Of a stretch of DNA of 64,000 nucleotides, positions 6,853 to 20,379 are shown piece after piece. Location: assembly GCF_054482595.1 (NCBI RefSeq), contig NZ_CM137008.1. One strand, 5' to 3'. The first letter of the stretch is position 1. Every line of letters begins with the position of its first letter. Under the pieces are notes generated by a model. The model ran no database searches and was not told where the DNA came from. It worked only from the letters and a program-made list of their open reading frames with translations. Made by a program: the position numbers and the translations under genes.

Positions 6853-7008
6853 TGAGAGCAGAGATAGCGCTGATGTCCGGCGGTGCTTTTGCCGTTACGC
6901 ACCACCCCGTCAGTAGCTGAACAGGAGGGACAGCTGATAGAAACAGAAGCCACTGGAGCACCTCAAAAACACCATCATACACTAAATCAGTAAGTTGGCA
7001 GCATCACC
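6853..7008 (-). mobile_element. Partial IS1 (156 bp of the left-end portion, including the left inverted repeat)
   Basis: Identical to 18883-19038 of the complete IS1 downstream; ends ...TAAGTTGGCAGCATCACC; joined directly to the Tn3-type inverted repeat at 6852/6853. Confidence 0.9.
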
Positions 7009-7034
7009 AGACTCAGGATAGCCAATTTTCTACA

Positions 7035-7730
7035 TTGGGGAAAAAGAATGGGCAAATGAAGTCTATTGACAACAAATCATCTCTCCAGGTTGACAGGAAT
7101 CCCTCTCTTTCTTTGCAAACAAATGGAACAGAACAATTTTCTACAAAGAAAATTCTCAATATGACTTCACGAGATCAGGGGAGTAACTCTGAACTATCTA
7201 ATAAAACGATACAATTTAAGGAAAAAATCCATAATGGTATCAATACAGAATACATCACAGATCAAAAACACAGTAATAATAAAGATCGTGAAAAAAAATA
7301 CCGCGATGGAGACAAAATAAATGGACAGCAGGCTCATTCATTAGACAGTACTAACGAAAGAAGGTTTGCTGATAACAGAACCATGTTTACTCAACATATC
7401 GAAAAGCAAAGGAATGTTCATACGCTCAATCAGAATGATATAAATAATTCTGTTAATAGTGTCAATGTGCCCGAAAATGAATTGACATATCAGTTTCAGC
7501 GTTGGGGACAGAATCATACAGTCCGGATTCTGGAAAGTAGTGAAGGGATACGACTAAAACCATCGGACGCGCTTGTCTCCGACAGACTCCATGAAGCCCA
7601 AAACAATGATGTTACAGCACAACGTTGGGTATTGACTGAACAAGATGAACGACAAGGACAACGACATCAGCCTCATGAGGAGCAAGAAAATGAAGGCAAA
7701 TTCGAAAACGATCAGAAGGATGAAAGTTAA
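7035..7730 (+). CDS. eivJ: InvJ/SpaN-family type III secretion protein (EivJ-like), possibly N-terminally truncated
   Basis: N/Q/S-rich 231-aa ORF immediately upstream of, and overlapping (TAATG), the SpaO homologue; assignment by synteny with Salmonella invJ-spaOPQRS; annotated start is TTG, an ATG lies at 7056. Confidence 0.45.
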   Translation: MGKKNGQMKSIDNKSSLQVDRNPSLSLQTNGTEQFSTKKILNMTSRDQGSNSELSNKTIQFKEKIHNGINTEYITDQKHSNNKDREKKYRDGDKINGQQAHSLDSTNERRFADNRTMFTQHIEKQRNVHTLNQNDINNSVNSVNVPENELTYQFQRWGQNHTVRILESSEGIRLKPSDALVSDRLHEAQNNDVTAQRWVLTEQDERQGQRHQPHEEQENEGKFENDQKDES

Positions 7731-8677
7731 TGTTCGGTCTGAGGAAGGTAAATCGAAACACTCATACGTTTGAAACCACTTTTCAAAATTGGAAAGAAAA
7801 TGGCGAAGATGTTGCATTATTAATGCCCGAATTTAGTGCTAAATGGCTACCGATAGCAGAAGAGAGTGGCAGCTGGTCTGGATGGGTGTTGCTTCGAGAA
7901 ATATTTCCCTTAATTTCTGCCGAACTCGCTGGGATGGCTTTAATGCCAGAAACGGAAAGGTTAATAGGCGAATGGCTCAGTTTATCCAGTTCGCCGTTAA
8001 ATCTAAAGTATCCTGAACTAAAATATAATCGTTTGTGCGTAGGTAAAGTATTTGATGGAGTATTGAGTCCAGCTCAACCACTGATAAGAATATGGACAGG
8101 GGAATTGAATCTTTGGTTAGATAAAGTCACTGTCTGCCAATACGAAAATACCCCAACATTAGACAAAAAATCATTATATTGGTCCATTCATTTTGTAATT
8201 GGATTTAGTAAAACATGTTACAGAAGTCTTGTTGATATTGAAGTTGGCGATGTTTTATTAATCTCAAATAATTTGGCTTATGCGGTTATTTATAATACAA
8301 AAATTTGTGATTTAATTTATCCAGAGGAGTTAAAAATGGCTGATCATTTTGAGTACGAGGAAGATTTTGAAACAGATGATTTTGATATCAAAAAAAGCGA
8401 GAGTGAGATTTATGATGAAAATGACGAACAGATGATTAATAGTTTTGAAGACTTGCCTGTAAAAATTGAGTTTGTTCTTGGTAAGAAAATAATGAATCTA
8501 TATGAAATAGACGAACTCTGTGCAAAAAGAATAATATCTCTGCTTCCAGAATCAGAGAAAAATATAGAGATACGTGTAAATGGCGCGCTAACTGGCTATG
8601 GCGAACTTGTTGAAGTGGATGATAAATTGGGCGTAGAAATTCATTCTTGGTTATCAAGGAATAATAATGTCAAATAG
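7730..8677 (+). CDS. epaO: Type III secretion sorting-platform protein, SpaO/YscQ family
   Basis: 315 aa with a FliN/SpoA-like C-terminus (...IEIRVNGALTGYGELVEVDDKLGVEIHSWL); position in the operon. Confidence 0.8.
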   Translation: MFGLRKVNRNTHTFETTFQNWKENGEDVALLMPEFSAKWLPIAEESGSWSGWVLLREIFPLISAELAGMALMPETERLIGEWLSLSSSPLNLKYPELKYNRLCVGKVFDGVLSPAQPLIRIWTGELNLWLDKVTVCQYENTPTLDKKSLYWSIHFVIGFSKTCYRSLVDIEVGDVLLISNNLAYAVIYNTKICDLIYPEELKMADHFEYEEDFETDDFDIKKSESEIYDENDEQMINSFEDLPVKIEFVLGKKIMNLYEIDELCAKRIISLLPESEKNIEIRVNGALTGYGELVEVDDKLGVEIHSWLSRNNNVK

Positions 8678-9332
8678 CATTTCGCTGATAGCGATATTAT
8701 CATTATTTACACTATTGCCGTTTATAATAGCATCCGGGACATGTTTTATTAAATTCTCAATTGTTTTTGTTATTGTCCGAAACGCGCTGGGACTTCAGCA
8801 AGTGCCATCAAATATGACACTTAATGGGGTTGCTTTGCTTTTGTCAATGTTCGTAATGATGCCGGTTGGGAAGGAAATATATAATAACAGTCAGAATGAG
8901 AATCTTTCATTCAATAATGTAGCGTCGGTTGTTAATTTTGTTGAGACAGGCATGAGTGGTTATAAATCATATTTGATAAAATATTCTGAACCTGAGTTGG
9001 TTAGCTTTTTTGAAAAGATTCAGAAGGTGAATAGTTCTGAAGACAATGAAGAGATAATCGATGATGATAATATTTCAATTTTCTCGTTACTGCCCGCATA
9101 TGCATTGAGTGAGATAAAAAGTGCATTTATTATAGGTTTTTATATCTATTTACCCTTTGTCGTAGTGGATCTGGTTATATCCAGCGTTCTGTTAACGTTA
9201 GGTATGATGATGATGAGCCCGGTAACCATATCTACACCGATAAAATTAATTCTATTTGTCGCTATGGACGGTTGGACAATGTTATCAAAAGGACTCATTT
9301 TACAATATTTTGACCTATCCATTAATCCCTGA
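8667..9332 (+). CDS. epaP: Type III secretion export apparatus protein, SpaP/YscR/FliP family
   Basis: 221-aa polytopic membrane protein (...FSIVFVIVRNALGLQQVPSNMTLNGVALLLSMFVMMPV...). Confidence 0.85.
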   Translation: MSNSISLIAILSLFTLLPFIIASGTCFIKFSIVFVIVRNALGLQQVPSNMTLNGVALLLSMFVMMPVGKEIYNNSQNENLSFNNVASVVNFVETGMSGYKSYLIKYSEPELVSFFEKIQKVNSSEDNEEIIDDDNISIFSLLPAYALSEIKSAFIIGFYIYLPFVVVDLVISSVLLTLGMMMMSPVTISTPIKLILFVAMDGWTMLSKGLILQYFDLSINP

Positions 9333-18059: not shown

Positions 18060-18285
18060 AAAGCTCCCTTTTTTAATTGTCCAGACCAATGGTCATAACA
18101 TCATACTTTTAAATCTAGAGTATTTTAAATATCTTGCAATAAGGTAAATATCTTAGATGTTTTTATCTCTGTTGTTTAAATAACAAGTTGCATACATTTA
18201 AACAATGAACTTGTGTCAATAAAAATTTATCGCATACAAATTCTCGTCAGCTGCTTTAGTTTCAAAATGTGGTAATGACTCCAAC

Positions 18286-18789
18286 TTATTGATAGTGTTT
18301 TATGTTCAGATAATGCCCGATGACTTTGTCATGCAGCTCCACCGATTTTGAGAACGACAGCGACTTCCGTCCCAGCCGTGCCAGGTGCTGCCTCAGATTC
18401 AGGTTATGCCGCTCAATTCGCTGCGTATATCGCTTGCTGATTACGTGCAGCTTTCCCTTCAGGCGGGATTCATACAGCGGCCAGCCATCCGTCATCCATA
18501 TCACCACGTCAAAGGGTGACAGCAGCCTCATAAGACGCCCCAGCGTCGCCATAGTGCGTTCACCGAATACGTGCGCAACAACCGTCTTCCGGAGCCTGTC
18601 ATACGCGTAAAACAGCCAGCGCTGGCGCGATTTAGCCCCGACATAGCCCCACTGTTCGTCCATTTCCGCGCAGACGATGACGTCACTGCCCGGTTGTATG
18701 CGCGAGGTTACCGACTGCGGCCTGAGTTTTTTAAGTGACGTAAAATCGTGTTGAGGCCAACGCCCATAATGCGGGCTGTTGCCCGGCAT
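18286..18789 (-). CDS. insB: IS1 InsB (expressed as the InsAB' fusion by frameshifting)
   Basis: 167-aa ORF overlapping the insA 3' end. Confidence 0.9.
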
Positions 18790-18983
18790 CCAACGCCATT
18801 CATGGCCATATCAATGATTTTCTGGTGCGTACCGGGTTGAGAAGCGGTGTAAGTGAACTGCAGTTGCCATGTTTTACGGCAGTGAGAGCAGAGATAGCGC
18901 TGATGTCCGGCGGTGCTTTTGCCGTTACGCACCACCCCGTCAGTAGCTGAACAGGAGGGACAGCTGATAGAAACAGAAGCCAC
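18708..18983 (-). CDS. insA: IS1 InsA
   Basis: 91-aa [43 protein letters not shown]... Confidence 0.9.
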
Positions 18984-19011
18984 TGGAGCACCTCAAAAAC
19001 ACCATCATACA

Positions 19012-20379
19012 CTAAATCAGTAAGTTGGCAGCATCACCCAAAATGTTGTCAATTATAACTCGATGGCTTTCACTCTCAGTTTCTTTATAGTAGAGTTTCA
19101 TGTTGTTTTTGAGCGGGTTAGGCACATACATATCTACACATTCTTTTATCACAACTGCTTTTCGTCTTCTGGGTTCGAGTTGTAGTGATTTGTCTATACA
19201 AATCCTTGCCTCTTCAATTTTTTCATTATGAAAGTTGACAAGTGCCCTATAGTAGTAGAGAGAGGCTATATCAGTTGAGTGTATCTTAGCCTGTTCAAAT
19301 AAGATATGAGATACTTTTGCTTGTCCAGACAGGCCAGTTATCAGTCCCATAATAGCTAAAATTTTTCCATCGACATTGGTTATGTTTGATACATAATCTA
19401 AAAGCTCTAATGCTTTTTGAGCAGCAAGTTCAAGTTCACTTTTTCCATGAAGTGCCAAAGACATATGGCATTCCGCTAGAAGGCAATAACATTCTGTTTT
19501 TAGCGTCTGTATATCACTTTTATTTTGTAATCCATCAAATATAGTCATGGCCCTGTAAATGCTTTCAGGGGTGAACTCGTAAAGTTCTTTCTTTCCGGCT
19601 AACATTTCATCTGATAAATAATGATTCTTATATCCTTGGTCCTGCTTAGCTAATCTTACAGATCGTTCTGGTTTATGTACCGTTTGAAGGATATTATCTA
19701 TAATAAATTGTGATGTATTATGTAGTTCATCAACAGGGAGATGATTACTGGCGATGAGGAAAAGGTTTTTAGCGTCGATCAACTCAATGTATAAAGTGTT
19801 CACTGCATTATTCTGGTTTATTCTTCCTGTAACGAAATAATCTGGCTTGAATCTGCTCAAGAATGAATTTTGAGATATGTGGTCATTACAAAAATTTGTC
19901 GCAGCCATCGGATAGGTATAGAGACCATCGATTTTTTTATTTGAAATGATTTGTACTAATTCCTGATTAAGTATTAATGGATCCAGTGTATTCAATGAAG
20001 TGGTGAAAGGGAATATAGCTATGGAATAGTCTGAAGTATTATCTTCATTAATTTTAGTTTTGAAAACCTGCCCGCTGAAACGATAACCTTTCCGGTAGAT
20101 TGTTTCTATGCAGCGATCATAGCCAATTTTTTCAAAAATGCAGCGCAAAGAATAGATACATCTTGTCAGGGACTCGTCACTAACAATAATATTTTTCCAT
20201 ACTGATTCGATGATCATATCTTTCAGTACAACATGACCAGCGGATTCAAGTAATACTATTAATACACCTAACTCTTTCGGTGGAATATAAACTTGCTCAT
20301 TTCCTTGAGTAAGAATTCCATCTTCCGTGAGCGTTAATCCCTCAAGAAAATGATATGAGAATTTATTTTCTAAGTCCAT
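19012..20379 (-). CDS. ygeH: HilA-like regulator (OmpR/PhoB winged helix plus TPR), with IS1-encoded C-terminus
   Basis: 455 aa; N-terminal wHTH region (...[45 protein letters not shown]...YRKGYRF); the last 8 codons and the stop ([12 protein letters not shown]) lie inside the IS1 end. Confidence 0.8.

Follow-up and report, generated by a model that had tools for sequence, protein, structure and literature searches.

Tn2670, the r-determinant of plasmid NR1/R100, is bounded by IS1 copies and consists of a Tn9-like catA1 segment interrupted by Tn21. Its layout has been published (PMC12494131), and chromosomal Tn2670-like composite transposons have been described in Salmonella Typhi H58 and Yersinia enterocolitica (10.1101/2021.03.10.434750; PMC8155512). 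Here we analyzed 64,000 nucleotides of an Escherichia coli chromosome (NCBI RefSeq assembly GCF_054482595.1, contig NZ_CM137008.1), referred to as the window, in which a 156-nt end of the insertion sequence (IS) IS1 and a complete IS1 enclose the distal half of ETT2 (the second type III secretion system of E. coli). Our results indicate that this pair very probably reflects two unrelated IS1 events whose products are, by coincidence, directly oriented and 12 kb from each other. The short copy is the edge, split by a Tn2/Tn3-family transposon, of a Tn2670-type resistance island within eivJ, an identity which an earlier sequence-only reading of this DNA had missed; the complete copy lies in ygeH.

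Like Tn2670, the island as present in W619, SM107, and XH990 (three of the sister genomes introduced below) has direct IS1 copies at both ends, with catA1 and ybjA by the left IS1, Tn21 tnpA/tnpR/tnpM, a class 1 integron, mer, a right IS1, and the 9-bp target duplication typical of IS1. It differs in being chromosomal, in eivJ of ETT2, in its dfrA12-aadA2 cassette array, in the addition of chrA, IS6100, and mph(A), in a right IS1 split by a blaTEM-1-carrying Tn2/Tn3-family element, and in the addition of IS26, ISCfr1, and aac(3)-IId modules; the window shows its right end only. The S. Typhi H58 and Y. enterocolitica elements are likewise IS1-bounded multiresistance transposons that moved from plasmid to chromosome, but their host, insertion site, and cargo are different, and in the present case the IS1 and IS26 deletions and inversions vary with each sister genome.

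Mutational attrition of ETT2 was reportedly described by Ren et al. in 2004, and IS1-promoted adjacent deletions in the gal region are said to have been described by Reif and Saedler in 1975. A review of ETT2 mentions a transposase insertion in ygeH in avian pathogenic E. coli and deletions at the right end of the system (PMC11068852). The present ETT2 shows the degeneration seen in most E. coli (eivJ split, epaO and orgB frameshifted, ygeH hit by an IS); it differs in that its largest lesion was caused by a resistance transposon inserting into it. IS1 adjacent deletion, with one IS1 end kept and a variable loss or inversion of the neighboring DNA, is matched by sister and unrelated genomes (W619, with about 13.8 kb; SM107, with about 10 kb plus an inversion between inverted IS1 copies; ZH177; the 23AR0303 clade; and ET881) but not by the window, where both flanks of the complete IS1 are original. 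Each component is a known element that acts in the expected way; novelty is confined to the sites of insertion, and there is no new mechanism.

The two IS1 sequences form a direct repeat

The pair and the segment that it encloses are as follows.

6853-7008, minus strand: IS1 stub, that is IS1 nt 1-156, with the left terminal inverted repeat (IRL, 6986-7008) and the first 33 codons of insA
7009-18270, plus strand: distal half of ETT2, with the eivJ 3' part, epaO-P-Q-R-S, eprH-I-J-K, orgA, orgB, ygeK, ygeJ, and ygeI
18271-19038, minus strand: complete IS1 (768 bp), with the right terminal inverted repeat (IRR, 18271-18293), insB (18286-18789), insA (18708-18983), and IRL (19016-19038)

A repeat search across the window showed that 6853-7008 and 18883-19038 are a direct repeat of 156 nt, 100% identical, with a spacing of 12,030. 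This is the sole repeat family of at least 40 nt in the 64 kb, and chance is excluded for a perfect match of that length. The position of the stub IRL gives it the same orientation as the complete IS1, and the segment between them runs from the truncated eivJ to ygeI. The direct orientation, the coordinates, and the identity over the shared length proposed by the sequence-only reading were all borne out by this search; no divergence and no opposite orientation was found over the 156 nt. The complete element that it had recognized is also correct, with both ends exact and a length of 768 bp; its site is not the gap between ygeI and ygeH but lies inside the 3' end of ygeH.

The stub is the border of a resistance island in eivJ

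Three features meet at the left end of the enclosed segment, the stub and its two neighbors.

5655-6852, plus strand: Tn2/Tn3-family remnant, with the bla promoter, blaTEM-1 (5845-6705), and a 38-bp terminal inverted repeat (6815-6852)
7009-7017, no strand: right copy of the 9-bp IS1 target duplication AGACTCAGG, made on island insertion into eivJ

With one end and no transposase, the stub cannot move by itself; in the window it lacks both a second terminal repeat and a transposase gene, and it is a fragment rather than an element. On its left it is bounded by the Tn3-family inverted repeat, downstream of blaTEM-1, whose product is a 286-amino-acid class A beta-lactamase (Pfam match and annotation). 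The 38-bp repeat GGGGTCTGACGCTCAGTGGAACGAAAACTCACGTTAAG is an exact match at 6815-6852, and the other inverted repeat is present in XH990.

The junction between this module and ETT2 was common to only four complete E. coli genomes (Santai, XH990, W619, and SM107) among the 5,426 searched. Between each of these sisters and the window there are only 2-4 differences in 18 kb, and none over 25 kb of downstream core genes; this near-identity indicates that the window comes from a clone-mate outside the complete-genome collection. SM107 belongs to sequence type (ST) 1011 and phylogroup E (PMC13048076). XH990 carries the simplest form of the island, 28.5 kb long, with a complete IS1 adjoining the eivJ 5' part and, at the other terminus, the second Tn3-family inverted repeat and the 156-nt IS1 end adjoining the eivJ 3' part. 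Its left junction reads ...ttattacgtcAGACTCAGG/ggtaatgac and the right junction ...gcatcacc/AGACTCAGGatagcc. In XH990 the 9 bp AGACTCAGG stand at the left junction, the window and all sisters have them at the right one, and a pattern search found them in single copy at the uninterrupted eivJ site of the island-free genome TUM18780 (locus L004, 18392-18400). This flanking duplication indicates that the 28.5-kb island was inserted as one IS1-bounded unit. Directly oriented bounding IS1 copies were found in XH990 and W619. This Tn2670-type island ends in its right-hand IS1, whose outer (IRL) end is the stub.

The remaining half of the split IS1 is found in XH990 (locus L005, 20962-21578) and ends ...cagTGAGA/ggggtctgacgc. 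In the window TGAGA is the first 5 nt of the stub (6853-6857), the 5-bp target duplication of the Tn3-family transposon. Since the two halves carry TGAGA on either side of the Tn3-family inverted repeats, as expected for such a duplication, we conclude that the Tn3-family insertion split the IS1. The blaTEM-1 unit is now a remnant and not a working transposon: tnpA, tnpR, and res are absent from it in the window, and a short tnpA fragment is kept in XH990 and W619. The junction between the inverted repeat and the stub also occurs on plasmid pCRST032_1, next to an unrelated gene, which suggests that the split is older than the arrival in the chromosome. The exact junction was verified on this one plasmid; the 381 plasmid records retrieved for it are an upper bound, the best-ranked being non-contiguous joins of two pieces.

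The complete IS1 interrupts the 3' end of ygeH

The complete IS1 and its surroundings comprise three further features.

18263-18270, no strand: left 8-bp target duplication CAAAATGT, the empty site being single-copy in Santai (locus L001, 36994-37001)
19039-19046, no strand: right 8-bp target duplication CAAAATGT, the same 8 bp as the left flank
19012-20379, minus strand: ygeH with an altered 3' end, its last 11 codons replaced by IS1-encoded codons

Both ends match exactly the terminal inverted repeats of IS1 (GGTGATGCTGCCAACTTACTGAT and GGTAATGACTCCAACTTATTGAT), which are imperfect and about 23 bp long, the IRR beginning GGTAATGACTCC. Both genes are intact: insA (91 amino acids) matches Pfam Zn_ribbon_InsA and HTH_Tnp_IS1 (E 1e-21 and 5e-31), and insB (167 amino acids) matches DDE_Tnp_IS1 (E 1e-77). 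The A6C motif for the -1 frameshift that yields the InsAB' transposase lies near 18726-18732, as its reverse complement GTTTTTT on the plus strand. Judged from its sequence, the element is apparently functional. It arrived by simple insertion with an 8-bp duplication. In comparison with the native protein of 458 residues in Santai, YgeH of the window keeps 447 native residues, followed by 8 encoded by IS1 (GDAANLLI) in place of the C-terminal KLKQLTRICMR (11 codons). YgeH matches Pfam Trans_reg_C, and a weak TPR match is below the Pfam cut-off.

The complete IS1 differs from both island IS1 copies of XH990 at 8 positions, all outside the shared 156 nt. This isoform difference indicates that the identity with the stub reflects the conservation of the IRL/insA end among IS1 isoforms and not a recent common origin. 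On this alignment, the complete IS1 is a different isoform from the island IS1, and its history appears unrelated. The ygeH site is empty in all four sister genomes. The presence of IS1 at the same site elsewhere was addressed by junction searches and by base-level alignment of genomes with an equal total span: the left junction was found in 0 of the 5,426 complete E. coli genomes, and the right junction was never contiguous at the same base. Other lineages with an equal total span, considered as candidates for the same insertion, were rejected for their offset, which is 14 bp in ZH177 and tens to hundreds of bp in the others. An IS1 hot spot at ygeI-ygeH was also considered and rejected, as IS1 lies within the flanks of about 1.1 kb in 18 genomes against about 12 expected from roughly 10 IS1 copies per 5 Mb (clonal inheritance uncorrected), which is no convincing enrichment.

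Possible deletion between the two copies and IS1-linked loss of ETT2

A crossover within the 156 nt is possible and would remove 12,030 bp, from the truncated eivJ to ygeI together with the 612 IRR-proximal nt of the complete IS1. In the product, blaTEM-1, the transposon inverted repeat, and the stub would be fused to the truncated ygeH, and the predicted recombinant junction joins the inverted repeat and the stub to CAAAATGTTGTCAATT. With a match required to cover at least 80% of this synthetic junction, the product was found in 0 of the 5,426 complete E. coli genomes. The configuration with both IS1 copies is itself present in this strain only. The pair therefore cannot explain the attrition of ETT2 across the species.

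ETT2 has nonetheless been lost next to IS1 in several other genomes. Relative to TUM18780, the left IS1 of the island in W619 adjoins a truncated AIPR gene and about 13.8 kb is gone, including eivF to the eivJ 5' part; in SM107 about 10 kb of the upstream side is gone next to the same IS1. These two losses of the whole upstream half of ETT2 thus lie next to the island's left IS1. On the distal side, orgB to ygeI is gone beside an IS1 in ZH177. A single IS1 lies between a 318-bp epaS remnant and ygeH in 23AR0303 (NZ_CP195442.1; locus L010, 6682-7909), where about 7 kb (from within epaS to ygeI) is gone, a structure shared with two further human isolates or clone-mates (CM151361 and OZ501674). 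In ET881 (NZ_CP100890.1; locus L011, 8519-9726) the IS1 is found at the opposite side of ygeH, where it is joined to a truncated yqeI, and ygeG, ygeF, yqeK, and yqeJ are gone. Every one of these deletions adjoins a complete IS1 (W619, SM107, ZH177, the 23AR0303 clade, and ET881), and either adjacent deletion driven by the transposase or exchange between full copies of IS1 accounts for them, with no stub needed.

In SM107, two inverted IS1B copies flank an inverted segment running from DUF6998 to an N-terminal AIPR piece (locus L008, 18306-22998). This arrangement is a signature of intramolecular replicative IS1 transposition.

Of the sequence-only proposal that recombination between the copies could delete the enclosed segment, the geometry stands, as it allows the 12,030-bp crossover, while the event is unsupported; the comparison with related genomes that it had recommended yielded no genome with the predicted junction among the 5,426. 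The further suggestion that this is a route to the attrition of ETT2 holds in that IS1-linked loss is real in other genomes, but fails for this pair. In this strain, future deletions are more likely to be transposase-driven adjacent deletions starting from the complete IS1. Recombination between complete IS1 copies would be a further route, if the left-hand IS1 of the island persists outside the window.

State of ETT2 in the window

The distal half of ETT2 (GC content 34.6%) was identified from its open reading frames and the annotation of the sisters; the truncated eivJ product matches the Pfam SPAN domain, and two genes lie on the minus strand within it, one of 97 amino acids and one encoding an etrA-like regulator. 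Compared with Santai and XH990, the orgB-like reading frame (15673-16380) has a 1-bp deletion at 15931 which divides it into 15673-15945 and 15948-16379, and which could be either a genuine frameshift or a sequencing error in a homopolymer. In the island-free, ST1011-like TUM18780, eivJ is annotated in two pieces and epaO is frameshifted (locus L004, 18238-20060). These lesions indicate that the decay of ETT2 predates the resistance island; as a secretion system the cluster was no longer intact when the mobile elements arrived.

Origin of the IS1 pair

We propose that eivJ was interrupted, in an ancestor of the ST1011 clone, by a Tn2670-type composite transposon, whose insertion would have generated the 9-bp duplication. 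Its layout would have been that of the NR1/R100 r-determinant type: IS1, catA1, ybjA, Tn21 with a class 1 integron and mer, and IS1. The right-hand IS1 would already have been split after nt 156 by a blaTEM-1 transposon of the Tn2/Tn3 family, with a 5-bp duplication, and this transposon would later have been remodelled by IS26 and ISCfr1 modules, leaving only the 156-nt IRL end of the right-hand IS1 in contact with ETT2. Later, and in this strain only, a complete IS1 of another isoform would have inserted into the last 11 codons of ygeH with an 8-bp duplication. Established here are the identities of the elements, the three target duplications, the isoform difference, and how the events are ordered with respect to the sisters. 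Two points weigh against this history. The left part of the island lies beyond position 1, and the Tn2670 layout and the left-hand IS1 are taken from the sisters; the junction of IS26 and IS6100 at 270/271 shows that the island of this strain has been rearranged relative to all four of them. The Tn2/Tn3-family remnant may be Tn2, Tn1, or Tn3; blaTEM-1B is the allele linked to Tn2. A chromosomal blaTEM-1B is recorded for SM107 (PMC13048076).

It seems improbable to us that the partial and complete copies actually serve as a substrate for deletion and that homologous recombination between them does contribute to ETT2 attrition. The copies are direct and identical, and their 156 nt exceed the minimal length for RecA-dependent exchange in E. 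coli, which Shen and Huang in 1986 and Lovett et al. in 2002 reportedly placed at about 25-50 bp; moreover, in the 23AR0303 clade a single IS1 replaces almost the same segment, from within epaS to ygeI. However, RecA-dependent recombination over so short a homology 12 kb apart could occur but is expected to be rare, its junction is absent from the 5,426 complete genomes searched, a configuration confined to one strain offers no species-wide account, and the observed deletions, all adjoining a complete IS1, are equally explained by adjacent deletion or recombination between full copies. Less probable still is that the complete IS1 is a local copy of the island IS1, made by replicative intramolecular transposition, so that one event would account for both. 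Matching orientation, proximity, and identity over 156 nt would fit such an origin, and the island IS1 copies have clearly been active in the sister genomes, but the 8 differences from both XH990 island copies, the impossibility of copying the stub into a full element, and the clean 8-bp duplication with both original flanks, which denotes a simple insertion where the replicative route would give a deletion or an inversion, largely refute it.

There is next to no chance that the stub region is an artefact, either cloning-vector contamination (a bla-to-ori-like segment at 5655-6852) or a plasmid-chromosome chimera of the assembly. Positions 6700-6852 are identical to the sequence downstream of bla in pBR322-type vectors, but they are the native right end of a Tn3-family transposon, stopping exactly at the 38-bp inverted repeat; the same chromosomal junction is present in four independently sequenced complete genomes, and the 9-bp and 5-bp target duplications match. 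Vector contamination was rejected on these grounds. A broader view, which we hold only tentatively and judge rather unlikely, is that in the ST1011 clone ETT2 is being eroded stepwise by IS1 from both sides of the resistance island. XH990 would then represent the intact insertion, W619 and SM107 independent upstream losses, and the ygeH IS1 of this strain the setting up of a distal loss; the stub would be one of several usable crossover partners, and a virulence-type island would decay faster once a resistance transposon had arrived next to it.

The value of the locus lies mainly in annotation and epidemiology. It is the right edge of a chromosomal, plasmid-derived multiresistance island, with blaTEM-1 in the window and catA1, dfrA12, aadA2, sul1, mph(A), mer, and aac(3)-IId in the sisters, fixed in the ETT2 of an ST1011 clone that occurs in China in people, pigs, and ducks. 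Annotation should treat the stub as an island boundary and not as a free-standing IS1 relic, and the comparison supplies concrete natural cases of IS1-linked ETT2 deletion. Within the literature searched, no description of a resistance island in ETT2 was found, and the only publication found on the ST1011 island or strains was the SM107 paper, which lists chromosomal resistance genes and does not describe their site.

The resistance island in the sister genomes and in the window

In W619 and SM107, IS1 copies in direct orientation still enclose catA1, ybjA, Tn21 tnpA/tnpR, the integron, and mer; an inward deletion in XH990 took catA1 to tnpR. The Tn21-type region of XH990 reads, in order, a truncated tnpM, intI1, dfrA12, aadA2, qacEdelta1, sul1, chrA, padR, IS6100, mph(A), IS26, and the mer genes. 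These are followed by the IS1 without its IRL end, a Tn3-family inverted repeat with a tnpA fragment, IS26, aac(3)-IId, IS26, ISCfr1, and blaTEM-1.

The island of Santai (NZ_CP007592.1, 3378000-3425000) is much larger, with fosA3, armA, msr(E)/mph(E), blaOXA-1, and trbC/traN fragments in addition. On its far side it adjoins a tRNA-Ile island beside mug and rpoD, which the usual map places about 200 kb away from ETT2; this implies a large IS-mediated inversion. Besides the 156-nt stub, Santai has a complete, unsplit IS1 by merR (locus L001, 16091-16861) with 14 mismatches to the IS1 of the window; its island holds a second, differently derived mer-IS1 segment.

The part of the island present in the window begins with the following features.

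1-270, no strand: IS6100 fragment truncated by IS26 and belonging to the resistance island; 1-165 match the IS6100 remnant of Santai in opposite orientation
271-1090, plus strand: IS26 (820 bp), with tnpA (334-1038) and 14-bp terminal repeats (271-284 and 1077-1090)
1091-5654, plus strand: plasmid-type passenger module, with small open reading frames, a DUF3883/NO VEIN gene (2403-3539), and the ISCfr1 transposase (3654-5024)

Left of position 271, none of the four sister genomes continues to match the window. IS6100 and IS26 abut at 270/271, where the sisters carry aac(3)-IId or other sequence, which suggests that the island part with mph(A), mer, and aac(3)-IId was deleted or rearranged through IS26 in this strain specifically. 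The IS26 transposase matches Pfam DDE_Tnp_IS240, and the sister genomes annotate the element as IS26. The passenger module was assigned from the annotation of identical sequence in Santai and XH990, from Pfam matches, and from its occurrence on many plasmids, where the DUF3883/NO VEIN gene accompanies the ISCfr1 and blaTEM-1 module.

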